This document shows positions 20,217 through 61,800 of a stretch of DNA of 64,000 nt, piece by piece; position 1 is the stretch's first letter; the number at the start of each line of letters is the position of its first letter. The position numbers and the translations under genes were made by a program. The DNA comes from a virus (taxonomy: Duplodnaviria > Heunggongvirae > Uroviricota > Caudoviricetes). The notes under the pieces are model-generated. The model searched no databases. It was not told where the DNA came from and was given only the letters and a program-made list of their open reading frames with translations. The stretch lies in IMG/VR virus record IMGVR_UViG_3300002834_000024, positions 192,001 to 256,000 of that record; one strand, 5' to 3'.

Positions 20217-21306
20217 TATTTCGCTCTAATTCCATCTTATAAATAGTATCAAGTTTGTTTGTAATCACTTCATCATAAATCTCACATAGTTTTAATGAAG
20301 TATCAACTGGTCCCATAAATGTTATATTATTGTATTTCTTTTTTTTACAAAAACCTTGAAGAAATTTGTACAATTCTATAATGATATTAACATGTGGGGC
20401 ATATATTAATTCAGTTTCGTTTGTACTGTATTTCAATATTAGGTAACAATCATATATAAATATATGTATAGGTCTGTCATCAAATATTAGATTATCTAAA
20501 ATGTACTTTACTTCTTTATCTCTATACTTGGCAAGTGTATTATCTGATCCAAACGATTTGAATAATTTTACAGTAGAAACACCAACATGATGAAATTTAT
20601 CTTCAACATTCCATTTATGTTTATTAATGATAACCCAATTACTTTTAGAATCAACAATATTATCAATCAATTTTCCATAGTCATTTGGAAATTGTGATGG
20701 TTCAGTATCATCTTCCAGTTTTAATAACAACAATTCATCATTAGCTTTATGTAATTCTCGATTGAGATAAAAATATTTTCGTGGTAATAGAATGTTTTTA
20801 TTTTCATTTAATAAATTTTCAACACCATCAAATGCTTCTTCTTGGGTAATATATTTATCAAATGATTTTTTTTGAATGTATTTATCAGTAATTACAATTT
20901 GATATACAAATTTAGCCTTTTCATCTTTTTCTTGTGCAAGTTTAAGTTTTCTTCTTTCCAACCCTAATTGCATGAAGGCTTTTCCAGCACATTCTTGTGA
21001 ACAGTATTGCCAATTATAATCTTTGCCCCTTAGTCTTGGTTTTTTCTTAAATTCACTTCCGCACCAATCACATATCCACCATATAGGTTTTTTAATTACA
21101 TAGTTTTTTATATAACCAAGTTTTTTTCGGTATCCTTCTTTGCCTTTTGTTTTATACCATTCTTTATAGAATTTCTTTTTTTGAGCTGCTAAATGAGTAG
21201 CCCATTGAGCATCAGTATAATCTTTTTTTCTTTTTCTTGTTTTTATACCTTTTGCTTCACGTTCTTCAATAGCATTTTTTCTATATTCTGGTATTTTTTT
21301 TGGCAT
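20167..21306 (-). CDS. Basic zinc-finger hypothetical protein
   Basis: CDWCG...YCSQEC; K-rich N-terminus. Confidence 0.6.
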   Translation of the reverse strand: MPKKIPEYRKNAIEEREAKGIKTRKRKKDYTDAQWATHLAAQKKKFYKEWYKTKGKEGYRKKLGYIKNYVIKKPIWWICDWCGSEFKKKPRLRGKDYNWQYCSQECAGKAFMQLGLERRKLKLAQEKDEKAKFVYQIVITDKYIQKKSFDKYITQEEAFDGVENLLNENKNILLPRKYFYLNRELHKANDELLLLKLEDDTEPSQFPNDYGKLIDNIVDSKSNWVIINKHKWNVEDKFHHVGVSTVKLFKSFGSDNTLAKYRDKEVKYILDNLIFDDRPIHIFIYDCYLILKYSTNETELIYAPHVNIIIELYKFLQGFCKKKKYNNITFMGPVDTSLKLCEIYDEVITNKLDTIYKMELERNNESKKNKNNTKSIECD

Positions 21307-21383
21307 TTTATTTGGTTTTATACTTTTTTTGGAATATTATTGCATTACTTTTAATATAATATAATTATCAAAATTTTAAATAC

Positions 21384-21827
21384 ATGGCAGCAAGTAAATT
21401 TTTTCCAATGAGTGAGGATATTGTAGATTTAATCCTTGATGTAATGAAAGATGATACACCCTATCTGGCGACATTAGGTCTTGATTTTACTTATCTTGGA
21501 GTTGCAAAACAACCATCAATAATTAAAGTATCAAAGATTGCACCAATAGCTGAATATCTTATTGAAAAGGAAACAATTGTAATAACAATTTATGAACAAG
21601 CATTTGAAATGCTAACACCAGAATATAAGAAGATGGTTATAGCACATGCGTTAAATTCAATTGAATATGATTCAGATAAAGATAAATTGAATATTCGTGG
21701 AAATGGTGGAACAGCCATTGATGAAGGGATATACAACAAATATAAAGAAACATCTGTACTGGCAGTATTTGCTGGCGAACATGCAATCAGACAAATCGAA
21801 GAAGATAAGAAAAAAGATAAACAATAA
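21384..21827 (+). CDS. Phage metallopeptidase-like protein (degenerate HExxH)
   Basis: FEML...MVIAHALNSI resembles phage metallopeptidase domains. Confidence 0.45.
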   Translation: MAASKFFPMSEDIVDLILDVMKDDTPYLATLGLDFTYLGVAKQPSIIKVSKIAPIAEYLIEKETIVITIYEQAFEMLTPEYKKMVIAHALNSIEYDSDKDKLNIRGNGGTAIDEGIYNKYKETSVLAVFAGEHAIRQIEEDKKKDKQ

Positions 21828-22150
21828 TGGACAAAATTGAAATTAGAGTTGGTATTGGTTTGGATAGTATAACTTTTGCTATATTACCATCCAGAAGACA
21901 ATATATAAATAATTGTTATCCAGATACAATTCAAGCAAACTATGTTACCATTAACTATGATATTAATAAGTGTGAAAATGTTGAAAACTTTATTTTGAAG
22001 TATAAACATAATATTTCCACAATCTTATTTGGAATAGATAGTCAAATTGTTTTATCTGATGATAAAGTTAGAGAAATACAATTTGTGTATTCCAAAGACG
22101 AAAAAATATTATATACCTATACAATGTCAGATCATTGTAGAAAAATATAA
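21827..22150 (+). CDS. Hypothetical protein
   Basis: Coupled ORF. Confidence 0.6.
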   Translation: MDKIEIRVGIGLDSITFAILPSRRQYINNCYPDTIQANYVTINYDINKCENVENFILKYKHNISTILFGIDSQIVLSDDKVREIQFVYSKDEKILYTYTMSDHCRKI

Positions 22151-22154
22151 TATA

Positions 22155-22304
22155 TTATTTAGTTCTGATAATAGCACGTCTTGTATTCACTCTTGGAGTA
22201 ACCCCACCATAGTTACCATTAGGTTTAACCCCAATATTTCTTGGTGCTTGTTTTTGAACCTGTGTTTTAACAGCTGGTACAGCTCTTTTTGAACAATTGC
22301 ACAT
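22155..22304 (-). CDS. Small basic protein (49 aa, MCNCSKRAVP...)
   Basis: Hand translation; TATTTATA on minus strand just upstream. Confidence 0.55.
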   Translation of the reverse strand: MCNCSKRAVPAVKTQVQKQAPRNIGVKPNGNYGGVTPRVNTRRAIIRTK

Positions 22305-22419
22305 AATATTAATTATTTTAATATAAATATGATTAAAACTTGGAATATTGAAATATTTATACTATATTTATAAATGAAATTACAGAGGTAATTCAAGAAA
22401 AAAGAAAATAACAAGGTAA

Positions 22420-22516
22420 AGGAAATTCACAGCAATTTTTTAAAAATTAACAATTATTCAATTCAAAGACCGTAGGGTTGATCTATCGGGATCAACAAAC
22501 AAAAACAAATTTCCTG
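22420..22516 (+). ncRNA. ACAGCAA stem-loop RNA unit 1
   Basis: AGGAAATT/AATTTCCT closing stem, ACAGCAA after 5' arm, inner GTTGATC/GATCAAC hairpin. Confidence 0.5.
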
Positions 22517-22527
22517 TCTTTTTTAAA

Positions 22528-22587
22528 GGAAAACTAACAGCAATTTTTAAACATACAAATTTTAGGCGTGTATTAAAGAGTTTTCCG
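22528..22587 (+). ncRNA. ACAGCAA stem-loop RNA unit 2
   Basis: GGAAAACT/AGTTTTCC stem, ACAGCAA, inner ATACA/TGTAT hairpin. Confidence 0.5.
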
Positions 22588-22645
22588 TTTTTTTTTTGAA
22601 AATTTAGAAATAATCAATATATTTATATTTGATTAAAAATTATAT

Positions 22646-22717
22646 CGTGGGATGGAGAAGTGGTATCTCGTGGGGCCCATAACCCCAAGATCGCAGGATC
22701 GTAACCTGCTCCCGCAA
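22646..22717 (+). tRNA. tRNA-fMet (CAT), initiator
   Basis: C1:A72 mismatch, G-C-rich anticodon stem, CAT anticodon. Confidence 0.9.
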
Positions 22718-22727
22718 CAAACTTATA

Positions 22728-22793
22728 GGAAAACTAACAGCAATGTTTAAAAACCATCATTCTGAATCAATGACGACATTAAAATGTTTTCCG
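22728..22793 (+). ncRNA. ACAGCAA stem-loop RNA unit 3
   Basis: GGAAAAC/GTTTTCC stem, ACAGCAA, inner TCATT-CTGAATC-AATGA hairpin. Confidence 0.5.
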
Positions 22794-22842
22794 TTATTTT
22801 TTAAAAATTGAACTATTTATAATTCTAAAAGAAATTAAAAAA

Positions 22843-22977
22843 ATGTTTTTAGTAACAATGACATCTTATATTCAAAATTCTATCAATTTACGTGGTGGAA
22901 ATAAGAATAATAAACCCTTTGGTGATGATGAACAACCAAAAGGGCAAGACCTGTTATTGCAAAAATTTGAAACATAA
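22843..22977 (+). CDS. Attenuator leader peptide 1 (44 aa) for tRNA array 1
   Basis: MFLVTMTSYIQNSINLRGGNKNNKPFGDDEQPKGQDLLLQKFET; core matches array 1 amino acids; contains antiterminator arm 22948-22959. Confidence 0.8.
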   Translation: MFLVTMTSYIQNSINLRGGNKNNKPFGDDEQPKGQDLLLQKFET

Positions 22978-23006
22978 ATGAAGATATAAGTTTCCATAGT
23001 TTTTCA

Positions 23007-23065
23007 GAGAACTCTCAATAACAAGGTCAAGAATAGGGCAAGTTATTGGGAGTTTTCATTTTTTT
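23007..23065 (+). terminator. Attenuator terminator upstream of tRNA array 1
   Basis: 16-bp stem 23007-23022/23042-23057 followed by A and T7. Confidence 0.8.
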
Positions 23066-23108
23066 AACATCCAGTTCAAAAGAGTTTGAATAATTTGGAT
23101 TACTTTTG
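23064..23108 (+). promoter_or_regulatory. TTAACATCCAG box + TAnnTTTG promoter
   Basis: Box, 26 nt, TACTTTTG; tRNA-Glu follows. Confidence 0.75.
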
Positions 23109-23118
23109 TAAAAAATAT

Positions 23119-23193
23119 GGCGGTATCGTATAACGGTTAGTACGACTGACTTTCGCTCAGTAAATAGGGGTTCGATTCCCCTTACCGCTACCA
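23119..23193 (+). tRNA. tRNA-Glu (TTC)
   Basis: Cloverleaf, ACTGA-CTTTCGC-TCAGT, encoded CCA. Confidence 0.92.
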
Positions 23194-23198
23194 AGAAA

Positions 23199-23210
23199 GT
23201 TCTTTGAAAT
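23199..23210 (+). promoter_or_regulatory. boxA-like antitermination element
   Basis: GTTCTTTGAAAT resembles rrn boxA. Confidence 0.5.
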
Positions 23211-23217
23211 ATAAAAT

Positions 23218-23289
23218 TCCCCTGTAGCTCCAATGTAGAGCGACAGACTGTTAATCTGTGGGTTCGTGGTTCAAGTCCACGCAGGGGAG
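23218..23289 (+). tRNA. tRNA-Asn (GTT)
   Basis: ACAGA-CTGTTAA-TCTGT. Confidence 0.92.
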
Positions 23290-23297
23290 CTAAAAAA

Positions 23298-23374
23298 CGA
23301 AAGGTAGAGGAGTCTGGTTCCCTCGTCATCTGATGTGCAGGTGGAGTACAATGGTTCAAATCCATTACTTTCGA
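23298..23374 (+). tRNA. tRNA-like gene, Pro-type body with aberrant anticodon loop
   Basis: C1-G72/A73, D and T arms intact, loop GATGTGC lacks U33. Confidence 0.55.
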
Positions 23375-23381
23375 CTAATAT

Positions 23382-23457
23382 CTAGATGTATAGGAGTCTG
23401 GTTTATCTAGCTCGCCCTGGAAGCGAGATCACGTTGGTTCAAATCCAACCATCTAGA
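23382..23457 (+). tRNA. tRNA-Pro (TGG), atypical C33/A37
   Basis: CTCGC-CCTGGAA-GCGAG. Confidence 0.75.
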
Positions 23458-23464
23458 CACAAAT

Positions 23465-23538
23465 GCAGGTGTCGTATAACGGTATTATTATATCTGGCTT
23501 CCAACCAGAGGACGTGGGTTCGATTCCTATCACCTGCT
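23465..23538 (+). tRNA. tRNA-Gly (TCC)
   Basis: TCTGG-CTTCCAA-CCAGA. Confidence 0.92.
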
Positions 23539-23548
23539 CAACAAATAT

Positions 23549-23621
23549 GGGATTTGTGGTGTAATGGCTAGCATATAACACTGTCACTGTTAAGGTTGGG
23601 GTTCGAGTCCCCCAGATCCCG
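23549..23621 (+). tRNA. tRNA-Asp (GTC)
   Basis: TAACA-CTGTCAC-TGTTA. Confidence 0.88.
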
Positions 23622-23629
23622 CAAAAAAA

Positions 23630-23702
23630 CGAGTAGTCGCACAGTTGGTAGTGCGCTTGGTTTGGGACCAAGAGGTCGGGAGTTCGAGTCTCTCCTATTC
23701 GA
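23630..23702 (+). tRNA. tRNA-Pro (TGG)
   Basis: CTTGG-TTTGGGA-CCAAG. Confidence 0.92.
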
Positions 23703-23799
23703 CATAAAAATAGAAATTATGAAGAAGATTTTTAAAATAAAACGAAAACATATGCAGTCCCCATAGTCACTATCGGCTATGGGGTCGCTATCAGGCTAT

Positions 23800-23870
23800 T
23801 TCCTCATAGTTCAATGGTAGAACTCTACACTTTTAATGTAGATATTCAGGTTCGATTCCTGATGGGGAAA
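23800..23870 (+). tRNA. tRNA-Lys (TTT)
   Basis: CTACA-CTTTTAA-TGTAG. Confidence 0.9.
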
Positions 23871-23902
23871 CAAAAAAAAAATAGATATATGATAATTAAT
23901 AT

Positions 23903-23974
23903 GGTTTCATAGTTCAACGGATAGAATATTTGACTACGGATCAAAAGATGAGGGTTCAAATCCTTCTGAAATCA
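23903..23974 (+). tRNA. tRNA-Arg (ACG)
   Basis: TTTGA-CTACGGA-TCAAA. Confidence 0.92.
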
Positions 23975-23985
23975 CAAGCATATAT

Positions 23986-24057
23986 TGTCCTATGGTGTAG
24001 TTGGAAACACACATCCCTTTGACGGATGTATCTTTTGTTCGAGGCAAAATGGGACAA
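23986..24057 (+). tRNA. tRNA-Gln (TTG)
   Basis: CATCC-CTTTGAC-GGATG. Confidence 0.9.
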
Positions 24058-24076
24058 CAAATTAAAATATAATGTT

Positions 24077-24379
24077 ATGGATAAAATAATGATGTTTGAT
24101 AAAGAACATGAAGTTCTTGTTAGTAATGATACTAATGGATTAGTATGTGAAACTGAAATGATGAATATGATTGGGAAATCAACAATTCCAGTTTTTATGA
24201 ATAGAAAGCAAAAATTAGAAGAACATGCAAGTTTGTTGTTAAATGATTTAGATGTTGAAATTATTCAATCACATCCAGTTGAACCATCTAAAATTCATGT
24301 AAAAGTAAAATCATTTGAGGATTGGAAAGAATCTATAAAAGATATACCGCCAATTGGAGTAGTAACCATACCTAATTGA
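24077..24379 (+). CDS. Hypothetical protein
   Basis: First ATG clear of tRNA-Gln. Confidence 0.6.
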   Translation: MDKIMMFDKEHEVLVSNDTNGLVCETEMMNMIGKSTIPVFMNRKQKLEEHASLLLNDLDVEIIQSHPVEPSKIHVKVKSFEDWKESIKDIPPIGVVTIPN

Positions 24380-24393
24380 TAATACCATCTAAT

Positions 24394-24438
24394 TTAACAT
24401 CCAGTAAAATTTATTTTTATATAAGTTTATTATTTTTG
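24394..24438 (+). promoter_or_regulatory. TTAACATCCAG box + TAnnTTTG promoter
   Basis: Box, 26 nt, TATTTTTG. Confidence 0.75.
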
Positions 24439-24471
24439 TATCATTATTAACACAAATAATTTAAAAAAGTT

Positions 24472-24819
24472 ATGAGAATTGCATTTAGGCTTTGTGATAA
24501 TACAAAACAGTTAAAAACAACTGATAAAAATGCACATGTTTTTGAAAGAGTAGATGATACATTCATAATTCCAAGAAAAGGTGATGTAGTTGTTTTTTTT
24601 GGTATAAAATATGAGGTAATTTCAGTAGAATTTACCTATAAAGAAATATCATTATTAAATATGTATCATGATGAAGCAAAGAAGATTTATCCATTTATTG
24701 TGGGACAAGATGATAAAATAACAGATACGGTAACTGTTCATTTATTTGAATATAGTCCAAAAATAAAGAAAAAGGGGTTTATTCGCACACTTCTTTCACA
24801 TGGGTTTACTAATTTTTAA
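24472..24819 (+). CDS. Hypothetical protein
   Basis: ORF after promoter. Confidence 0.6.
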   Translation: MRIAFRLCDNTKQLKTTDKNAHVFERVDDTFIIPRKGDVVVFFGIKYEVISVEFTYKEISLLNMYHDEAKKIYPFIVGQDDKITDTVTVHLFEYSPKIKKKGFIRTLLSHGFTNF

Positions 24820-24848
24820 AATTCATATTTATAAGAAAATATGTTTTT

Positions 24849-25088
24849 ATGGAAAAAATTGAAAATATTATAAAAGAAACTATAACTGAATATGTTTTGC
24901 AACCAGAGGGGTTGGATCAAAAGATTAGAAATAAATTAACACCAATATATAATCTCATTGAAGTATTAAAAATGTATGATAAAGATCCAGATCCAAAAAT
25001 ATGGGCGTTTATTATGAAAGAAAACAGTATGGTTGAAAAATCTATTCAAGAGATATTGGAATTAACAAAAGATTATCAACACACTTAA
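24849..25088 (+). CDS. Hypothetical protein with propeptide-like N-terminus
   Basis: IENIIKETITE; TATTTATA upstream. Confidence 0.55.
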   Translation: MEKIENIIKETITEYVLQPEGLDQKIRNKLTPIYNLIEVLKMYDKDPDPKIWAFIMKENSMVEKSIQEILELTKDYQHT

Positions 25089-25102
25089 AATCATATAATG
25101 TT

Positions 25103-25315
25103 ATGACAGAAAAACAGAAACAAAAAATTTGGAATTTCAAGGATACCAATCTTCAACAATGGCAACATGAAAGAACTATTGTTGAAAATGAATTATCTAA
25201 TAATCAATCCATGTTTTGTGTTTGTGGTAAATTAGCCACAGGATTTCATGAAATGAATTGTAGAAAATTCAATGATAAAGTGGATATAGAAACTCTTAAA
25301 AGATTAAAATTATAA
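25103..25315 (+). CDS. Small zinc-binding hypothetical protein
   Basis: CVCG...H...C. Confidence 0.55.
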   Translation: MTEKQKQKIWNFKDTNLQQWQHERTIVENELSNNQSMFCVCGKLATGFHEMNCRKFNDKVDIETLKRLKL

Positions 25316-25317
25316 AA

Positions 25318-25362
25318 TTAACATCCAGAACACTTTTTATTAATATGTTATGTTTATCTTTG
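25318..25362 (+). promoter_or_regulatory. TTAACATCCAG box + TAnnTTTG promoter
   Basis: Box, 26 nt, TATCTTTG. Confidence 0.75.
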
Positions 25363-25415
25363 AGTAATTTTTAGAGATAAAAGGATATTTATTTAGTAGA
25401 AAAGATAAAAATAAT

Positions 25416-26147
25416 ATGATTATGAACAAAGATAAAAAAGACTTGATAGTTGAGAGTTATAAGAACAAATTTTCCTTTTTACTTGGATATGATCCAGAAA
25501 TTGGGGGCGAATTGATAGAAGCAAACCACCATAATTTTATGTCAGAAATTATGGGACAAGATTCATTCAATAAACAACCAATGCAAAGATTAGATGAAAT
25601 AACAACTGACAGATTGTTAGGAAAACATTATGAAAATGGATTTGTTATTCTGTCAGCATCAAGGAGTGAATTATCCGATGCAGAAAATGTAACACGAAAT
25701 CAAAAACTTTTAAATATTTTACAAAGTAGTAGTAATGTTTTTTCATTTTTACCAGTCTATGGTGGATATATCGAAAATAAGGGTACAGAAAACGAACAAC
25801 GTGTTTTTGAAAGAAGTTTTGTAATCTTGAATTTTGATAAAAATGGTAATGTTGGAGATTTTGATGATTTAATGAGTTTTTCACAAGAACTTTCTAATCG
25901 TTTTCATCAAGAAACATATCTTATCAAAAAACCAGGTAATGCACCACCATATTATATTCGTACAAAAAGTGGCAAGGTAGATTGGGAATTTACTGGTGAA
26001 ATCAAAATAGATGATTTAACACAAAAATATTTTACCCGATTAAGACAACTTGGAAAACAATTTACATTTGAAGGTGTTTATATTAATCCAAAACCAATGT
26101 GTTATAGTGAAAGACATTGTAGATATTTGAAAAATGAAATATTTTAA
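25416..26147 (+). CDS. Conserved phage hypothetical protein
   Basis: ILSASR..N..RN..L..PVYGGYIE..E.SF..F.QE pattern. Confidence 0.65.
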   Translation: MIMNKDKKDLIVESYKNKFSFLLGYDPEIGGELIEANHHNFMSEIMGQDSFNKQPMQRLDEITTDRLLGKHYENGFVILSASRSELSDAENVTRNQKLLNILQSSSNVFSFLPVYGGYIENKGTENEQRVFERSFVILNFDKNGNVGDFDDLMSFSQELSNRFHQETYLIKKPGNAPPYYIRTKSGKVDWEFTGEIKIDDLTQKYFTRLRQLGKQFTFEGVYINPKPMCYSERHCRYLKNEIF

Positions 26148-26189
26148 CATCCAGAAGATTGTTTTTTAAAAAAATTGTTTGTACTTTTG
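26144..26189 (+). promoter_or_regulatory. TTAACATCCAG box + TAnnTTTG promoter
   Basis: Box, 27 nt, TACTTTTG. Confidence 0.75.
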
Positions 26190-26195
26190 TATCAC

Positions 26196-26390
26196 ATATA
26201 GAGTAATCTATATTGTTTAAATTTAGTTATGAGGATGTGGACTGAATTGTGTGATGTATGTCATTGCAAAATGCACAATTCAAGGGATACAGCAAGACAG
26301 CTAACAAGGTGAATTAACATCAAAGGGTGAAAATCTCACAAACATAAGGTTGAAAGCCCGTAAAAGAATTTGATGCGTGTTGATTGTGTA
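26196..26390 (+). ncRNA. Candidate structured ncRNA
   Basis: Several stems with GNRA tetraloops directly after a promoter. Confidence 0.45.
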
Positions 26391-26463
26391 GTAATTATTT
26401 TAAACTTTTTTTTAAAAATTGAATTTATTGACTATTTATAATAAAATTAAAAATTTTTTAACA

Positions 26464-26574
26464 ATGAAACGATTTAGTTTACATATTAGTATTACCTTAT
26501 CAGCAATGGCGTATTGCTGGTTGGTGTCTTATTGTACACTTTTTACACATTTTGGTGGAATTGTTTCAAGTTAA
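26464..26574 (+). CDS. Attenuator leader peptide 2 (36 aa) for tRNA array 2
   Basis: MKRFSLHISITLSAMAYCWLVSYCTLFTHFGGIVSS; residues 4-30 all match array 2; antiterminator arm 26561-26570. Confidence 0.82.
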   Translation: MKRFSLHISITLSAMAYCWLVSYCTLFTHFGGIVSS

Positions 26575-26605
26575 TATTATATGAAATAAAGATAGGAAAG
26601 ATTAT

Positions 26606-26662
26606 AATCCCCTTGAAACAAATTAGTCAAAAAGTGATGAAAAGTTTTAAGGGGATTTTTTT
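26606..26662 (+). terminator. Attenuator terminator upstream of tRNA array 2
   Basis: 14-bp stem 26606-26619/26644-26657 with T tract ending 2 nt before first tRNA. Confidence 0.82.
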
Positions 26663-26664
26663 AT

Positions 26665-26736
26665 TGTGTTATAGTTCAGTGGTAGAACAGGTGTTTCATA
26701 GGCATCAAGTCGGGGGTTCAAATCCCTCTAACGCAA
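26665..26736 (+). tRNA. tRNA-Met (CAT), elongator (Ile2 not excluded)
   Basis: GGTGT-TTCATAG-GCATC. Confidence 0.8.
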
Positions 26737-26746
26737 CAAATATATT

Positions 26747-26831
26747 GGAGAGTAAACCTGGACATGGGTTAGGGACCGCCTGCTAAGCGGATCGTTCCGC
26801 AAGGAATTTGGATCGAGACCAATGCTCTCCG
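26747..26831 (+). tRNA. tRNA-Ser (GCT)
   Basis: CTGCTAA loop, long variable arm, G73. Confidence 0.9.
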
Positions 26832-26840
26832 CAAAATTTT

Positions 26841-26932
26841 GGAGGTGTAACCCTAATGTGTAAGGGACTGGTCTTGAAAACCAGCAGTAATCATGTAAAA
26901 GTGATGTGTCAGTTCGAGTCTGACCACCTCCG
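26841..26932 (+). tRNA. tRNA-Ser (TGA)
   Basis: CTGGT-CTTGAAA-ACCAG, long variable arm. Confidence 0.92.
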
Positions 26933-26944
26933 CCTTAATAATGA

Positions 26945-26956
26945 GGTCTTTGACAT
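26945..26956 (+). promoter_or_regulatory. boxA-like antitermination element
   Basis: GGTCTTTGACAT resembles rrn boxA. Confidence 0.5.
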
Positions 26957-26972
26957 GTTGGTAAAAATAAAT

Positions 26973-27060
26973 GAGAGTGCGCTAGCGTTGGAGAGCTGGG
27001 ATGGGCTGTAACCCCATTGCCTTTAACAGGGCTTAGTAGGTTCGATTCCTACCACTCTCA
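26973..27060 (+). tRNA. tRNA-Tyr (GTA)
   Basis: ATGGG-CTGTAAC-CCCAT, long variable arm. Confidence 0.92.
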
Positions 27061-27065
27061 CATAT

Positions 27066-27140
27066 GGGAATATCGTATAGGTGGTTATTGTACGCTGGAC
27101 TGAAAATCCAGAGGCTGGGGTTCAACTCCCTGTGTTCCCA
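27066..27140 (+). tRNA. tRNA-Phe (GAA)
   Basis: CTGGA-CTGAAAA-TCCAG. Confidence 0.92.
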
Positions 27141-27150
27141 CAATAAGTGA

Positions 27151-27234
27151 GGGGATGTGGCGAAATTGGTAGTACGCATCGGGTTTAAGCCCCGATTCCC
27201 AAAAGGAGTGTCGGTTCGAGTCCGACCATCCTCA
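27151..27234 (+). tRNA. tRNA-Leu (TAA)
   Basis: TCGGG-TTTAAGC-CCCGA. Confidence 0.92.
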
Positions 27235-27242
27235 CAACAAAT

Positions 27243-27327
27243 GGGGATATGGGGGAATTGGCAGACCCGCCTGTTTTAGGAACAGGTGCAGTAATGCGTG
27301 TGAGTTCGAGTCTCACTATCCCTACCA
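27243..27327 (+). tRNA. tRNA-Leu (TAG)
   Basis: CCTGT-TTTAGGA-ACAGG, encoded CCA. Confidence 0.92.
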
Positions 27328-27330
27328 AAT

Positions 27331-27401
27331 GTTCCATTAGCATAATGGTAGTGTACTGGTCTGCAAAACCAGGTGTATCCGTTCAATTCGGATATGGAAC
27401 T
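27331..27401 (+). tRNA. tRNA-Cys (GCA)
   Basis: CTGGT-CTGCAAA-ACCAG, U73. Confidence 0.92.
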
Positions 27402-27415
27402 CAAAAAATATTAAA

Positions 27416-27488
27416 GGGGCTGTCATATAGTTGGCTATTATGATAGATTTGCAATCTATTCACTGGGGTTCGAGACCCCACAGCTCCA
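27416..27488 (+). tRNA. tRNA-Ala (TGC)
   Basis: ATAGA-TTTGCAA-TCTAT, G3:U70. Confidence 0.92.
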
Positions 27489-27494
27489 CAAAAA

Positions 27495-27568
27495 GTTTCT
27501 GTATTTCAGTGGTTTAGAATGTTACTCTTACAAGGTAAAGGTCGTTGGTTCAAATCCAACCAGAAACA
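27495..27568 (+). tRNA. tRNA-Val (TAC)
   Basis: TTACT-CTTACAA-GGTAA. Confidence 0.92.
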
Positions 27569-27578
27569 CTCATAACAT

Positions 27579-27651
27579 TGGCACGTATATCAATGGTCAG
27601 ATTACCACCCTGATAAGGTGGGGGTTACTGGTTCAAGTCCAGTCGTGCCAA
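27579..27651 (+). tRNA. tRNA-Ile (GAT)
   Basis: CCACC-CTGATAA-GGTGG. Confidence 0.92.
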
Positions 27652-27666
27652 CTAAATTTTTTATAT

Positions 27667-27737
27667 AGGTACATGGTGTAATGGTAGCATTTTGGTCTCC
27701 AAAACCAACGATCAGGGTTCAAATCCTTGTGTACCTG
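27667..27737 (+). tRNA. tRNA-Trp (CCA)
   Basis: TTGGT-CTCCAAA-ACCAA, G73. Confidence 0.92.
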
Positions 27738-27743
27738 CTACAT

Positions 27744-27817
27744 GGTATCGCTGGTGTAATGGTTAGCATGGCACATTGTGAGTGTGTAGGTTAGGGGTTC
27801 AAGTCCCCTGCGATACC
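27744..27817 (+). tRNA. tRNA-His (GTG)
   Basis: G-1:C73, GCACA-TTGTGAG-TGTGT. Confidence 0.92.
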
Positions 27818-27873
27818 CAAATATTTGGAAAACAATTTTAAAAACAGTATTTTTGTATTAAAATTTTAAAAAT

Positions 27874-28380
27874 ATGAATAAAAAAATGATTTTATTGTCA
27901 ATATTAATGACAAGTCTGTTTTATGGTTGTGGAAGTATGGGTAGTGTTGCTGTTAAAAATGTAAATTCATGTACATATAAAATTGTTAATACAACTTTTA
28001 TTTATGATTTGTTTGATAGTGATGAAGAATATGAAAATAAATTTAGGTTAATTAAATTAGCAATTTATGATATATTTCCTAATATGGATGGTAACACATT
28101 TTTATTTGATGATGAATTAAAAGTTATTCAAGGAAAAATGATTTATAATGTACATACAGATTCTTTTTTTGGAACAAAATATGAAGGGAGAAGTAATTTC
28201 AAAATTATTAATAATAAGATAACATTTAGTAATCCCGAAATATTTTTTTTACCATCTCGTTATAGTAGTGGTGGGTGGGAGAAAATACCAAATGAGGGAA
28301 CTATATCTGAAAAAACCGCATGTAATACAATAGATGTGTGGGAAAAAATGGTAATAAAACTTTTAGAAAACATAAAATGA
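27874..28380 (+). CDS. Lipoprotein inserted in tRNA array 2
   Basis: Signal peptide with LFYGC lipobox. Confidence 0.7.
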   Translation: MNKKMILLSILMTSLFYGCGSMGSVAVKNVNSCTYKIVNTTFIYDLFDSDEEYENKFRLIKLAIYDIFPNMDGNTFLFDDELKVIQGKMIYNVHTDSFFGTKYEGRSNFKIINNKITFSNPEIFFLPSRYSSGGWEKIPNEGTISEKTACNTIDVWEKMVIKLLENIK

Positions 28381-28385
28381 TTAAT

Positions 28386-28457
28386 GCTTCTGTAGTTCAA
28401 TGGCTAGAACATCTGCTTTGTAACCAGAAAATATCAGTTCGATTCTGATCAGAAGCT
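28386..28457 (+). tRNA. tRNA-Thr (TGT)
   Basis: GCTTCTG/CAGAAGC acceptor, TTTGTAA loop. Confidence 0.88.
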
Positions 28458-28476
28458 CTCAATTTTTACCAACAAA

Positions 28477-28647
28477 ATGTCAAAAGAATTATATAATTGG
28501 TTAGAATTTCGTTTCAGACATGATAATTTAAAAAAATATCATAAATATTTTCAACAATGGGTTGATAATATAACTGAAAATCAAGTTCAAGGTTTTTATA
28601 ATCAATTTACCAGTTTCATAGGTCAAGATATAATTTGGAAACCATAA
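28477..28647 (+). CDS. Small hypothetical protein (56 aa, MSKELYNWLEFRF...)
   Basis: Hand translation, below track cutoff. Confidence 0.55.
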   Translation: MSKELYNWLEFRFRHDNLKKYHKYFQQWVDNITENQVQGFYNQFTSFIGQDIIWKP

Positions 28648-28657
28648 TTTACCAACA

Positions 28658-28981
28658 ATGAAAAATTTCAATAAACTTAGAGAGGAAGAAAAATATATTT
28701 ATGAATCCATTATGGCAGCCAGAAAGGTTCAATCTTTTTTATGGGGCGAATTTGAAGAAACAAGTGCTGACATAGAAGAATTTTGTCGAATGTTTCGGAA
28801 AAGAGTTTCAAAAATTGATGAAATAGATTTTAATAATCCACATTATAAAATTGAATTAAAAAAGAGGGTACTTCAAATTTGTGCTATTGGTATTAATTTT
28901 ATCAATAAATTGGAAAATAATGACTTTCCTGAAAAACCACTATTACCATCTAATCTTTCAAACTATTCATTATCCAATTAA
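28658..28981 (+). CDS. Hypothetical protein
   Basis: ORF. Confidence 0.6.
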   Translation: MKNFNKLREEEKYIYESIMAARKVQSFLWGEFEETSADIEEFCRMFRKRVSKIDEIDFNNPHYKIELKKRVLQICAIGINFINKLENNDFPEKPLLPSNLSNYSLSN

Positions 28982-29032
28982 TTTTGTTAATTAATTTTAT
29001 TTTAAATATTTTTATATAAAATATTAATTTTT

Positions 29033-29500
29033 TTGGAAAAACAGCTTGATTATATATCAATATTTAAAGTACATAGTGTTGAACCCATTAAACCTTCAAA
29101 CTGTGATGGTACTATTCGTTACATTACATTGTGTATTACTTGTGATACCAAACCCAATGATACATCCTTTGATTCATTAAGAGTTCTTACAACCTCTAAA
29201 ATTCCAGATGCTTATCATGAAGGATTTACTACATTTGAGGAATATGAGGAAATACCTTTTAGAGTGATTACTACACTAATTCAATGTAATAAGATTGATG
29301 ACATATTTTATTTGGAACTTGATATGTCAAAACCATCTTGCGATATGGGTATTACAATTGATGGTTACATTGGTATTGATCCAAGAATTGATATTGATGT
29401 AAGTAACTTTTTAATAACTTCTAACCAAGATGTGTTTAATTCAAATACAATTACTTTTAATGAGGATTTTTTTAATAATATAAAAAACATAAAATTTTAA
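29033..29500 (+). CDS. Hypothetical protein ending FNNIKNIKF
   Basis: ORF, TTG start. Confidence 0.6.
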   Translation: MEKQLDYISIFKVHSVEPIKPSNCDGTIRYITLCITCDTKPNDTSFDSLRVLTTSKIPDAYHEGFTTFEEYEEIPFRVITTLIQCNKIDDIFYLELDMSKPSCDMGITIDGYIGIDPRIDIDVSNFLITSNQDVFNSNTITFNEDFFNNIKNIKF

Positions 29501-29898
29501 TGGAAGAACTATCAAATAATAAGATGGAAAAAGTAATGACTGAAACATGGGAAAAGTTTTTTCGTTGTATTTTTCAATCAAAGAAAAAAAGTTATGATAA
29601 TTATTCAGTTTATCAATCTTTATTAAAATTTTATTTTAAAGAATGTGTAGTTAAAAATTATAGTTTAGATTTTTATTTAAGTAACTTTCGGAAAATTAAA
29701 TTCATATATAAAACTTATGATGATATTTTTGATTTCATTGTTGCTGGTACATTGAATGATAGATTGGATTTTACTTTTTTCAAAAAAATTGGTAATATTG
29801 TAAAAGAAAATATTGAAATAGAGATGCAAAATAATAAAATAGAAATTTCAAAATTTGATGAAAATTACTTTAATAATATAAAAAACATAAAATTTTAA
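29471..29898 (+). repeat. 30-bp direct repeat (29471-29500 and 29869-29898)
   Basis: TTTAATAATATAAAAAACATAAAATTTTAA twice, each ending a gene. Confidence 0.85.
29500..29898 (+). CDS. Hypothetical protein ending FNNIKNIKF
   Basis: Coupled ORF. Confidence 0.6.
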   Translation: MEELSNNKMEKVMTETWEKFFRCIFQSKKKSYDNYSVYQSLLKFYFKECVVKNYSLDFYLSNFRKIKFIYKTYDDIFDFIVAGTLNDRLDFTFFKKIGNIVKENIEIEMQNNKIEISKFDENYFNNIKNIKF

Positions 29899-29902
29899 AA
29901 AG

Positions 29903-30295
29903 ATGAAAGACAATAACAAAGAAGCCAAAAAATTTGACTTAACAATTAGAAAATTAAAGGGAATTTTAAATTCCGAAACCATTAGTTTACCCACAAAAGT
30001 TCAGGCAACCGAATTATCAACATTGATTCAAGACTTATTCAAGGAGGAAAATGAAAATAATATAAAGTTATTGAAAGAACAATTGAGGGAACTTTTGAAG
30101 AAACATGTTCAATTAGAAAAGAGTGTTAAAGAAAAGGAAAAAGAATTAATTAAATTGAAAAAGGAAAAACAGGCTGAATTTGTTAAAGCATGTGATGACT
30201 TGTTTAATAAAATATCCGATATTGATACTCTTACTTCTCAATACGAAGATTCACTCAAAAGCGCAATTGTAGAAGAAGTTGATGAAGGATATTAA
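29903..30295 (+). CDS. Coiled-coil hypothetical protein
   Basis: ORF. Confidence 0.6.
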   Translation: MKDNNKEAKKFDLTIRKLKGILNSETISLPTKVQATELSTLIQDLFKEENENNIKLLKEQLRELLKKHVQLEKSVKEKEKELIKLKKEKQAEFVKACDDLFNKISDIDTLTSQYEDSLKSAIVEEVDEGY

Positions 30296-58372: not shown

Positions 58373-58884
58373 AAGCAATTACAATTAAAAATCCATGGGC
58401 ATTTTGGATATGTTCAGGATTGAAAGATATTGAGAATAGAACTTGGAGTACCAATTATCGTGGTAAGGTTTTGGTACATGTGTCAAGTAAAATGGAGGAT
58501 ATTAGTAATATTCTGGATAATTATTTCAATGATAAAATGTATCATGATTTGCAACAAAATATACAATGGATAAAAAAATCTAATTATCCTTATAACATTA
58601 AAGATACATGTGGTGCAATAATAGGTTCAGTTGATATTGTTGATTGTGTTATTAATTATCCATCACAATGGGCTGAAGAAACATATGAAACAAATTATGG
58701 ATTTAGAAAACCTATCATATATAATTGGGTGTTAAAAAATCCAATATTATATCGAGAACCCCTTTTTAATGTTAAAGGTCAATTGAAGTTATGGGATGTA
58801 ACAGCAGAACAATATAGAGATTCATATTGTAATAATGAAACTTCAGTGATGAAACATAATTTAATGTTGAAAAATGGCAATTGA
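58369..58884 (+). CDS. ASCH domain protein
   Basis: ITIKNPWA..GLKDIENRTW..YRG; KGQLKLW. Confidence 0.88.
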   Translation: MKAITIKNPWAFWICSGLKDIENRTWSTNYRGKVLVHVSSKMEDISNILDNYFNDKMYHDLQQNIQWIKKSNYPYNIKDTCGAIIGSVDIVDCVINYPSQWAEETYETNYGFRKPIIYNWVLKNPILYREPLFNVKGQLKLWDVTAEQYRDSYCNNETSVMKHNLMLKNGN

Positions 58885-61800
58885 AATAAATAAAATTAAA
58901 ACATTCCTTGAAGGAAGTGATCCCCAAAAACGCATTGTAAACATTGAATGTGGTTATGGGGATACCGAAGTTTCTATATTTTCTAGAAATGATTTAAGTG
59001 AAATAGTTGTAAATAGAGAAGAATTTTTTCCGTTTGTATGGGCAAAACTAAAAGTTACAGATATGTTGATAGCTCATTATGGAAGCCGATCTGCTCTTGA
59101 ATGGGGATTAAGAACAGCAAAGATTTGGGTTGATTGTTTAAAAACGGATAATGAAAATGGTCAAAGCCCCAAAAGAATGTTGGATGGATATAATGTTTTA
59201 TTCTTTGCAACAGAATCTATGTCATATTCTAAATTTACAAAATTTTTTAGAGATTGTGGAATAGATATATATGGTTCAGAAAAAAACTTTATGGCGATAA
59301 CACCAGTTGAACAATACATGATTAAATCTGGAAAACGTTATTTTAAAGAGTTAAACGAATATGATGATTTATTGAGATGTATTTGGGATATTGAAACAGA
59401 GGGATTAGATCCAAATGATTGTGCAATCACACAGATAGGTATAAGTACCAATAAGGGATATGAACAAGTATTACATGTGGAAGGTAATACAAAAGAAGAA
59501 AAAGAAGAATCTGAAAGAAAAACTATACAAAAGTTTTTTCAAAATATTGAACATATAAATCCTGATATATTAGCTGGTCATAATTCAGAAGTATTCGACT
59601 GGCCATTTATATTAAGAAGAATTGAACTTTTATGGCCAGATAAAGAAAATATATTTGATAATATAATAAAACATTTTTGGGGACCAAATAATAAGTTTAA
59701 TGATGGTAAATATGATAGATTTACCCAATTAAAAGATAAGAAAACAAAAAAAGAATATACCGCAAATCGAACTCTTTACAAAAAGGATATTAAGTCAGTT
59801 TTAAAACTTGGAAATGAGGCTGAATATTTTTATCCAACAATTTGGTATGGACATACAGTTGTTGATAGTTTACATGCTTGTAGGCGAGCGCAAGCTATTG
59901 ATAGTAATATGAAGTCAGGTTCTTTGAAATATGCTGCTGAATACGCTAAACAGAAGAAACAAAATAGAGTTTATATACCTGGTGATAAAATATCAGATGT
60001 ATATTATGATAAATCTGATTTTGTTTTAGATGAATCAAATGGCGAATGGCATAAACTTAAATCAAATGAAGAACTAACCGAAACACAAAAGGTTGTTTCT
60101 GGTAAGTATATTGCTGATAGATACTTGTTAGATGACTTATATGAAGGTGATAGGGTTGAATGGTATTATAACCAATCTTCATTCTTTCTATCTAAAATGC
60201 TTCCAATACCATATCAAAAAGTATTAACTATGGGTACAAGTGCTACATGGAAATATATTTTATTGGCGTGGTCATACGAAAATAAATTAGCGGTTCCGGC
60301 ACTTAGTGAATTGAAACCATTTACAGGCGGATTATCACGTTTATTAAAAGTTGGTTTTGTAAAGGATATTGTTAAATTAGACTTCAATTCACTTTATCCA
60401 GCAATTACATTATCATTTGATGTATTCCCAAAATTGGATATTTCTGGTGTTTTTAAAACATTACTTGGTCATATACTTTCTGAACGTGAAAGATTTAAAG
60501 GATTAAAAAAGGAATTTGGAAAAAAAGCAAAAGCAACAGATGATCCAGTAGAAAAATTAAAATTTGAACAAGAAGAAGCTAGAAATGACAAATTACAATT
60601 ACCTTTCAAAATATTTGGTAATGCTTTCTTTGGGTCGTATGGAGCTCCAAATATTTTTAATTGGGGCGATGTAACAAAAGCTGAACAGATTACTTGTACA
60701 GCCAGACAATGTTTACGATTAATGACTAAATGGTTTGAAGATCGTGGATTTAGATCTGTCGTGATGGATAGTGTTACTGGTGATACACCAATTTTAATTA
60801 AATATAAATATAACAATGAAATTGACATAAAACAAATTTGTGATTTATTTGATGAAAATAAATGTGTTGATATAAATAATAATGGACAATTTAGAGATTT
60901 TAGTGAAAAACCATATTTGGTTTTAACAAGAAATGGATGGAAAGATATAGAATATGTTTATAAACATAAAACCAACAAAAAAATCCATAGAATAAAAACA
61001 AAAGATGTTTTAATAGATGTAACAGAAGATCATTCTCTTTTTGATAAAAATAAAAAAGAAATACAACCAAAAAATATTAAAATTGGCGATAAAATAGAAT
61101 TATATGAAAAAAGCTTAGATTATGTTTTTAATAATAATGGTCTAAATGAAGATATTGCATGGTTAATTGGTTTATTTGTTGGTGATGGTTCTTGTTTGTG
61201 TAGAAAACGTCCTCAAAAATATTTTTCAAAAAGAAAGTGTAATTATAATATAAATTATTGTTTTGGTTGTGATTGGAAAATTGATAACTTAAATTATGAA
61301 TTTTTAATAAAAGCACAAAATATTTTAAAAAATGAATATAATATAAATGCAAATATTAAAGATCATATAGAATCAAGTGGTGTTTTTTGTTTAAGAACAA
61401 GTAATTCAAAATTGAGTCGATTTTTTGCCGAAAATTGTTATACTAATAATCGTTTAAAAAAAATACCATCTATAATTTTAAATAGTGATTTAAAAATTAA
61501 AAAGGCATTTATTAATGGGTTACTATGTGCTGATGGATATGGTTATGATATTGATAAAACAATTAGTATTGGTCAAAAATCAAAGGTAGTTATGGCTGGT
61601 ATTGATTTAATTTTTAGAGAATTAAAAGTTAATTATAGAATATTGATTAGAAAAGATAAACCCAATTTTATCACATTTAGTATTAAAAATCGTCATGGCA
61701 ATAACATAAACGATAATTATTCAAAACAAAAATCAGAGGAAGTTTTTAGAAATGACATATTGTTTAATGAATATAATGATTATGTTTATGATATATCATT

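Follow-up and report, generated by a model that had tools for sequence, protein, structure and literature searches.

Organization of the tRNA arrays and the surrounding region

The 64,000-nt window analysed here belongs to a virus record that consists of one contig of 274,786 bp, with a G+C content of 29%. Sequence identical to this phage is listed for termite-gut metagenome DNA runs from two studies and for no RNA run. The phage is a 275-kb jumbo phage of termite-gut origin with a Bacteroidota-like host. ARAGORN finds 26 tRNA genes, and nearly all of these lie within two arrays (Table 1). Each array is preceded by a short ORF and a terminator, and we refer to these units as leader 1 and leader 2.

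Array 2 represents the hydrophobic half of the code. It comprises 13 tRNA genes, with tRNA-Met as the first, if a putative tRNA-Ser(GCU) is counted. The latter is an 87-nt element at about 26747-26831 whose MFE fold is a long-arm (class II) cloverleaf with a GCU anticodon loop. It is called neither by ARAGORN nor by the Rfam tRNA model, and its T loop is odd; a divergent tRNA-Ser and a decayed copy are both possible. The two tRNA-Thr(UGU) genes are both outside the contiguous array 2. One is located in array 1 (23298) and the other lies 568 nt beyond tRNA-His, behind an ORF of 168 aa that has its own upstream box. No terminator was found between array 2 and the 168-aa ORF with the tRNA-Thr(UGU) gene behind it, so these two genes may share a transcript with array 2. 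The ORF has one homologue (51% identity), on a 4.4-kb contig without tRNAs. The exact 168-aa product is also present in the protein database on two contigs, the longest of which, at 347,076 bp, is larger than the record analysed here; possible reasons are that the record is incomplete or that the other contig is a concatemer.

Several other features of the region were noted. The gene just 5' of the leader 2 unit (25416-26147) encodes an S-adenosylmethionine lyase family domain (PF23780, E = 3.5e-7), and its product may be a SAMase with an anti-restriction role. At 58874-63337 there is a gene for a 1,487-aa family B DNA polymerase that includes a LAGLIDADG-like domain; this domain probably represents an inserted intein or homing endonuclease. 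Three similar terminator-like hairpins at 22420-22800 bracket a solitary tRNA-Met (22646) that has its own TATATTTG box; their 5' arms are AGGAAATT or GGAAAAC, followed by ACAGCAAT, and they have large loops and T-runs. Within array 1, a 15-codon mini-ORF rich in Lys and Arg (23719-23766) is situated between tRNA-Pro and the Lys-Arg-Gln tRNAs.

Table 1. Positions of the leader units, tRNA arrays and associated features (window coordinates; the three family examples are numbered within their own loci)
Feature	Position	Strand	Description
Leader ORF 1	22843-22977	+	5' of array 1; whole unit 22843-23066
Leader 1 terminator	23007-23057	+	16-bp stem, then U-run
Class A promoter-like module	23067-23108	+	Between leader 1 terminator and tRNA-Glu of array 1
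tRNA array 1	23119-24058	+	Glu, Asn, Thr, Pro, Gly, Asp, Pro, Lys, Arg, Gln (ARAGORN)
Class A promoter-like module	26147-26189	+	ACATCCAG (26147-26154) and -7 box TACTTTTG (26182-26189)
Class B motif CTATTTATAAT	26432-26442	+	21 nt before leader 2 ATG
Leader ORF 2	26464-26574	+	ATG 26464, TAA 26572-26574; 36 codons plus TAA; 36 aa
Region 1	26465-26478	+	5' end of the ORF; pairs with region 2 (MFE)
In-ORF hairpin	26499-26521	+	10 bp, G+C-rich; codons 13-19; rare codons GCG and TGC (MFE)
Region 2	26555-26570	+	Last ORF codons; partner is region 1 or terminator 5' arm
Region 3	26606-26621	+	Terminator 5' arm 26606-26619; complement of region 2 26612-26621
Region 4	26644-26664	+	Terminator 3' arm 26644-26657; U-run to 26664
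tRNA array 2	26665-27818	+	Met, (Ser-GCU-like), Ser-UGA, Tyr, Phe, Leu-UAA, Leu-UAG, Cys, Ala, Val, Ile, Trp, His
168-aa lipoprotein-like ORF	27874-28380	+	Own TATTTTTG (TAnnTTTG) box upstream
tRNA-Thr-UGU	28386-28458	+	3' of 168-aa ORF
Family example L085	6001-6108
Family example L111	6001-6108
Family example L123	2715-2828

Promoter-like motifs and translation start signals

The genes of this phage have no Shine-Dalgarno sequence; they are A-rich at -10 to -14 and many have the motif TAnnTTTG upstream. TAnnTTTG is the -7 consensus of Bacteroidetes (PMC7366714). In about 35 places in the genome it follows TTTTAACATCCAG(T/A)A after a spacer of about 30 nt. These modules, which we call class A, are found 50-70 nt before ATGs, usually directly after a terminator (a hairpin plus T-run), and look like a phage promoter class in which a Bacteroidota -7 box is combined with a conserved upstream element. 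Examples in the window are at 23067-23108, 24397, 25321, 26147-26189, 30362, 42067 and 46608. The module at 26147-26189 likely gives a transcription start near 26195, upstream of leader 2. It is followed by a 27-codon ORF (26229-26312) in an unexplained 200-nt stretch of higher G+C content, and structure between 26200 and 26420 is not unusual (z = -0.27).

A second motif, class B (CTATTTAT(A/T)), is found 16-24 nt before the ATG of about 25 genes, with copies in the window at 2025, 11478, 14248, 22813, 26432 and 53597. One of the genes that it precedes encodes the 1,832-aa tail sheath (L127), which suggests a late-type promoter; class B is probably such a promoter with a very short 5' UTR. No function could be assigned with PHROGs to the window genes bearing the motif. 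The genome contains three copies of the full 11-mer CTATTTATAAT, two of which precede the two leaders, at 19 and 21 nt from their ATGs. The spacing at leader 2 is as in real genes, including that for the tail sheath. The start context of leader 2, with A at -3 and -11 to -15 and without a Shine-Dalgarno sequence, is also like that of the other genes of the phage, and resembles that of Bacteroidetes mRNAs (PMC7366714).

Between the leader 2 stop codon and tRNA-Met (26575-26664) there is no TAnnTTTG, class A or class B motif. As no promoter-like motif is present between the leader 2 terminator and tRNA-Met, array 2 depends on read-through. A sigma-70 scan did return a site inside the leader region (26581-26608). 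This was rejected as a meaningful promoter because such sites occur at chance level in DNA of 29% G+C (44 found, 38.9 expected) and because the genes of this phage use Bacteroidota-type signals.

The amino acid composition of leader 2 matches array 2

Residues 4-30 of leader 2 are made up only of Phe, Ser, Leu, His, Ile, Thr, Ala, Met, Tyr, Cys, Trp and Val, and each of these is present at least once. The original prediction, made from the sequence alone, was that these 12 are the amino acids of array 2. This is correct for 11 of them but not for Thr, which accounts for three of the 27 codons and whose tRNAs are outside the array proper. It was also predicted that both Ser and both Leu codon classes are sampled in keeping with the tRNAs. 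The codons AGT, TCA, TCT, TTA, TTG and CTT are all present, but the corresponding tRNA-Ser(GCU) is seen only in an MFE fold.

Seven runs of at least 27 residues drawn from the 12-amino-acid set were found in the six frames of the 274,786-bp genome, and only the run in leader 2 has all 12 kinds. Since this set includes Thr, the test was repeated with the strict set of 11. Leader 2 is the sole match among the 1,092 small ORFs of the 275-kb phage (ATG-ORFs of 25-60 aa) when a 27-residue window with at least 24 cognate residues and all 11 kinds is required. In order to avoid the choice of a window, we also scored the complete ORF without Met1 and without its six final codons. This segment includes all 11 kinds, and 24 of its 29 residues are in the 11-set (binomial p = 1.3e-4 against proteome frequencies), or 27 of 29 if Thr is included. 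The two Gly codons of leader 2, Gly being an array-1 amino acid, are located where a stall would already mask region 2. We propose that codons 4-30 are the sensing codons. No match to the leader 2 region was found in Rfam or among protein families.

It has to be considered whether this composition is merely a by-product of array 2 serving the hydrophobic amino acids. Leader 2 would then be an ordinary late gene for a moderately hydrophobic, membrane-associated peptide, followed by a terminator, and array 2 would be expressed by unregulated leakage. The peptide does begin Met-Lys-Arg and continue with a hydrophobic stretch, the class B spacing is that of real genes, and array 2 is the hydrophobic half of the code. 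The array-2 residue fraction of leader 2 is reached by 58 of the 1,092 small ORFs. Only two of the 1,092 remain, however, when full coverage is required as well, and leader 2 holds His, Cys and Tyr twice each in addition to Trp. Its maximum 19-residue Kyte-Doolittle mean is 1.46, so the usual cut-off for a single-pass membrane peptide (at least 1.6) is not reached. Moreover, a membrane function leaves unexplained both leader 1 and the 16-amino-acid rule of the related leaders described below. We consider this explanation unlikely.

Leader 1 has a similar organization

Leader 1 is the sole small ORF (n = 1,092) with a 20-residue window in which at least 19 residues come from the eight amino acids of array 1. 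The genome's two most extreme small ORFs in these composition tests therefore each precede the matching array. The layout of 1:2, 2:3 and 3:4 helices and the upstream motif are as in leader 2. The case for leader 1 as the only gate of array 1 is nevertheless weaker, because the class A module at 23067-23108 follows its terminator. As array 1 has this promoter of its own, the leader 1 unit could be an ordinary terminator-promoter junction.

Predicted alternative RNA helices in leader 2

The RNA of the leader 2 ORF is unusually structured (z = -4.0). As predicted, a 10-nt segment in its last codons (TTGTTTCAAG, 26561-26570) is perfectly complementary to a segment that overlaps the terminator 5' arm, and the 14-bp terminator (-21 kcal/mol) is directly before tRNA-Met. 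The calculated duplex energies are -13.4 kcal/mol for 1:2, -11.7 kcal/mol for 2:3 and -21.0 kcal/mol for 3:4, and the helix energies of the E. coli trp attenuator resemble these. A perfect complement of at least 10 nt to the terminator 5' arm is present in 0.2% of dinucleotide shuffles (p = 0.002). The energy of the 2:3 duplex is not exceptional, being matched by 6-8% of shuffles or genomic windows and by 26% if a longer arm is used. The separate hairpin within the ORF is a possible RNA polymerase pause hairpin, a role that is inferred.

We then modelled nascent transcripts ending before the terminator 3' arm, with a ribosome represented by a 30-nt mask. The 1:2 helix forms in these constrained folds when there is no ribosome. 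When the A site is at codon 5 or at codons 15-28 the 2:3 helix forms, and with the ribosome at codon 32 or beyond, or at the stop codon, it does not. Folding with the end of the ORF masked had been suggested as a check on the original prediction, and the outcome agrees with it: a mask at the stop blocks the 2:3 helix, and stalls at codon 5 or codons 15-28 allow it. In full-length equilibrium folds the terminator is kept whatever the position of the mask. Any switch must be kinetic, because the equilibrium fold always favours the terminator. The same is true of the classical trp attenuator, in which the equilibrium fold also favours the terminator and the switch is kinetic.

Close relatives of leader 2 or of its neighbours were sought without success. 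A search of a phage collection gave tRNA matches only, IMG/VR contained no match to leader 2 or to the 243-aa neighbour protein, and two scans of JGI metagenome contigs were likewise without a match. The helices of leader 2 itself are beyond covariation testing because no close relative was found.

A family of leaders in distant jumbo phages

With the DNA polymerase as query, only distant kin (35-42% identity) were found in IMG/VR. Two of these relatives are complete, at 257 and 304 kb, and their tRNA arrays are in a different order from those of this phage. Both have a conserved 35-codon ORF directly 5' of an array, with TATATTTATAAC before it and a terminator with a covarying stem after it. 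Using these peptides in a family search, we found 39 loci in IMG/VR, in addition to a divergent one (G015) that was found via its tRNAs. In total, at least 40 IMG/VR contigs share the same layout: a TATTTATAA motif, an ORF of 35-37 codons starting Met-Lys, a terminator and a tRNA array (see Table 1 for examples). The first tRNA is 70-87 nt after the leader stop codon in all 38 loci with downstream DNA. There is no family for these leaders in Rfam.

The peptide sequence seems to be little constrained, as substitutions are often radical, whereas the set of amino acids is kept. All 23 distinct family peptides contain the same 16 amino acids, which are those of the first tRNA cluster. Cys, Ile, Val and Gln shift position between clades and yet each copy keeps at least one of each. 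The remaining four amino acids are those whose tRNAs (Gly, Ala, Glu and Asp) are encoded in a second cluster kilobases away. Glu is never present in the peptides, Asp and Gly are each found in three of 23, and Ala is found in 19 of 23 as one fixed codon in the region 2 zone. The Ala, Asp and Gly residues are confined to positions 6-9 codons from the stop, at which a stalled ribosome would mask region 2. The G015 leader contains all 16 amino acids of its own array and none besides; if residues were drawn independently from proteome frequencies, the probability of such a composition would be about 1e-6. Three separate leader types each match their own tRNA set. The fit in the relatives is to a pan-set of array amino acids and is imperfect in detail: some phages have lost tRNAs while the leader is unchanged. 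Similarly, two loci (L090, 1740-1850; L091, 6001-6111) have a family leader and terminator in front of a rearranged array and the leader has not changed to match. The first tRNAs behind these two leaders are Trp, Cys, Leu, His, Ile, Met, Glu and Asp.

The family leaders are not hydrophobic, with Kyte-Doolittle values of 0.1, -0.25 and 0.5, and they keep their position before tRNA arrays. It had been stated that conservation as a membrane peptide, independently of tRNA context, would refute the proposal. The values for the relatives, and that of only 1.46 for leader 2, speak against conservation as a membrane peptide.

A candidate leader for the second cluster of the relatives (L082, 10280-10375) was rejected because its homologues carry stop codons. 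Very acidic ORFs of 74-78 aa (L082, 9648-9884; L123, 7670-7894) are also present in the relatives, 220-280 nt 5' of the second tRNA cluster (Leu-UAA, Gly, Ala, Glu, Asp). Asp, Glu, Gly, Ala, Leu and Met are abundant in their products, which may be ordinary acidic proteins or, alternatively, a looser equivalent of the leaders.

The family alignment also bears on whether the leaders are translated at all. The region is highly structured and matches no protein or RNA family, so it might act as an untranslated 5' leader, for example as a partial terminator, an insulator or a processing element, with the reading frame and the composition being incidental. However, in 28 distinct sequences all indels within the ORF are multiples of three and no copy contains a stop codon. 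It is also difficult to reconcile an untranslated element with three leader types that each fit their own tRNAs, or with a promoter-ATG spacing and a start context like those of real genes. We regard an untranslated leader as very improbable.

The same 28 sequences were examined for compensatory changes. The terminator has five compensatory pairs. A long alternative helix, in which the last nine codons pair with the spacer and the terminator 5' arm, shows three such pairs, and one alignment column covaries with both its partner in the ORF and its partner in the terminator. The 1:2-like helix is conserved but without covariation, and the 2:3 duplex energies are mostly not significant. The compensatory changes represent few independent events, because the tree has only about three clades.

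A further explanation accepts that the leader is translated and coupled to tRNA expression but not that hairpin competition is the means. The composition shows a link to translation and is silent on the output step, and the 2:3 and 1:2 helices are weak in the shuffle and covariation tests. Ribosome protection from Rho or RNases, a reversed logic, or a peptide acting on the ribosome or on tRNA processing would all be possible in such a scheme. Against such a scheme, every lineage has a strong intrinsic terminator placed exactly between the ORF and the tRNAs. In addition, the segment complementary to the terminator 5' arm is always in the last quarter of the ORF (in this phage and in G004, G015, L105 and L118), and the ORF segment covaries with the terminator arm. 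Coupling by a route other than competing hairpins therefore seems doubtful to us.

Leader 2 resembles the family in length, start and layout. Sequence similarity is weak: local alignment gives a score of 42, compared with 26.6 +/- 4.7 for shuffled sequences (p = 0.009), at 26% identity, and His7 and a Trp..Ser-Tyr.Thr-Leu pattern are shared. A leader composition equal to the amino acid set of the array is common to both. They differ in the sequence of the terminator and in how the code is partitioned, which is 16 + 4 in the family and 11 (or 12) + 9 in this phage. If the leaders are homologous, codons for Lys, Asn, Gln, Pro and Arg have disappeared from the sensing part of leader 2, in a lineage where the tRNAs for these amino acids are in a separate array with a separate leader.

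A model for the control of array 2

We consider it likely that leader 2 and its terminator form a ribosome-mediated (trp-type) transcription attenuator that senses aminoacyl-tRNA supply and gates array 2, although there are no experiments or expression data. The tRNAs of array 2 would then probably be made only when ribosomes run short of them. The observations behind this are computational and comprise the ORF, its composition, the motifs, the helices and, in the relatives, the conserved layout with covariation and with composition that tracks the tRNAs.

In the model, transcripts would be initiated either from the late-type class B motif at 26432 or from the class A module at 26147, and a ribosome would translate the 36-codon ORF as RNA polymerase advances. 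If decoding is fast, the ribosome would reach the stop codon and cover region 2, so that the 3:4 terminator could form; the terminated transcripts would be expected to end 1-8 nt before tRNA-Met. If any of the 11-12 kinds of aminoacyl-tRNA read at codons 4-30 is scarce, the ribosome would stall upstream and hold region 1. Region 2 could then pair with region 3, the terminator would not form and the 13-14 tRNA genes would be transcribed. In the absence of a ribosome the 1:2 helix is predicted to form and lead to termination. The net effect would be negative feedback, with tRNA genes expressed on demand. Translation of leader 2, stalling, the kinetic switch and the dependence of read-through on translation and on aminoacyl-tRNA are all inferred. 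That stalling gives read-through and complete translation gives termination was part of the original prediction, and it is supported, short of experiment, by the constrained nascent folds and by the relatives (layout, compensation in the alternative helix, and composition).

Comparison with known regulatory systems

Transcription attenuation by leader peptides has been described in general terms (PMC1183508). Leader 2 shares with the attenuators of amino acid operons a short 5'-leader ORF with codons cognate to the supply provided by the regulated genes, an intrinsic terminator directly before these genes, an ORF-proximal segment able to pair with the terminator 5' arm, and a stop codon placed so that the terminating ribosome masks that segment. 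It meets the structural criteria for an attenuator except for statistical proof of the two alternative helices in this sequence, and the experimental criterion is also left unfulfilled.

There are also clear differences. Known attenuators of amino acid operons include trpL, hisL, leuL and pheL, as well as the multivalent thrL (Thr, Ile) and ilvL (Ile, Val, Leu). These contain runs of codons for one to three kinds of amino acid, whereas leader 2 samples 11-12 amino acids and its relatives 16, from once to five times each. The targets of leader 2 are tRNAs rather than enzymes, and it is carried by a phage of a type of host that does not use Shine-Dalgarno sequences. It would sense an aminoacyl-tRNA pool that includes the phage's own product, which would amount to direct autoregulation. 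Leader-peptide attenuation of a component of the translation apparatus is known from E. coli pheST, which encodes phenylalanyl-tRNA synthetase. In that case a single amino acid (Phe) is sensed and the target is protein-coding, in contrast with the many amino acids and the tRNA targets of leader 2.

T-box riboswitches (Rfam RF00230) are like the proposed mechanism in that the status of tRNA is sensed and a terminator/antiterminator switch is used. However, a T-box binds uncharged tRNA directly, without translation, and our proposal relies on translation. There was no match to RF00230 at E <= 1 in positions 21000-30000. Literature searches gave no published account of trp-operon-style, leader-peptide control of tRNA genes.

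Implications

Arrays of tRNA genes are common in phages, and their role is debated between codon adaptation and escape from host defences that target tRNA. To our knowledge, how expression of such arrays is controlled is essentially unknown. On balance we also think it probable, with rather less assurance than for leader 2 alone, that jumbo phages of Bacteroidota-type hosts carry widespread and undescribed sensors of tRNA supply: mini-ORFs that sample the amino acids of an array and gate it by trp-type attenuation, with a codon set that follows the tRNA genes as they move.

If this is true, a leader that probes decoding across all codon families of its array would be the first direct feedback from decoding speed to transcription of tRNA genes, and classical attenuation would be extended from 1-3 amino acids to 11-16. 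A leader composition equal to the content of the array would be a signature by which functional tRNA operons, and the way they are regulated, could be recognized in metagenomic phages, and the leaders would offer synthetic biology a compact natural sensor of aminoacyl-tRNA supply. For the phage itself, such control could allow it to replenish precisely the tRNAs that run short, either late in infection or once the host tRNAs have been depleted or cleaved.
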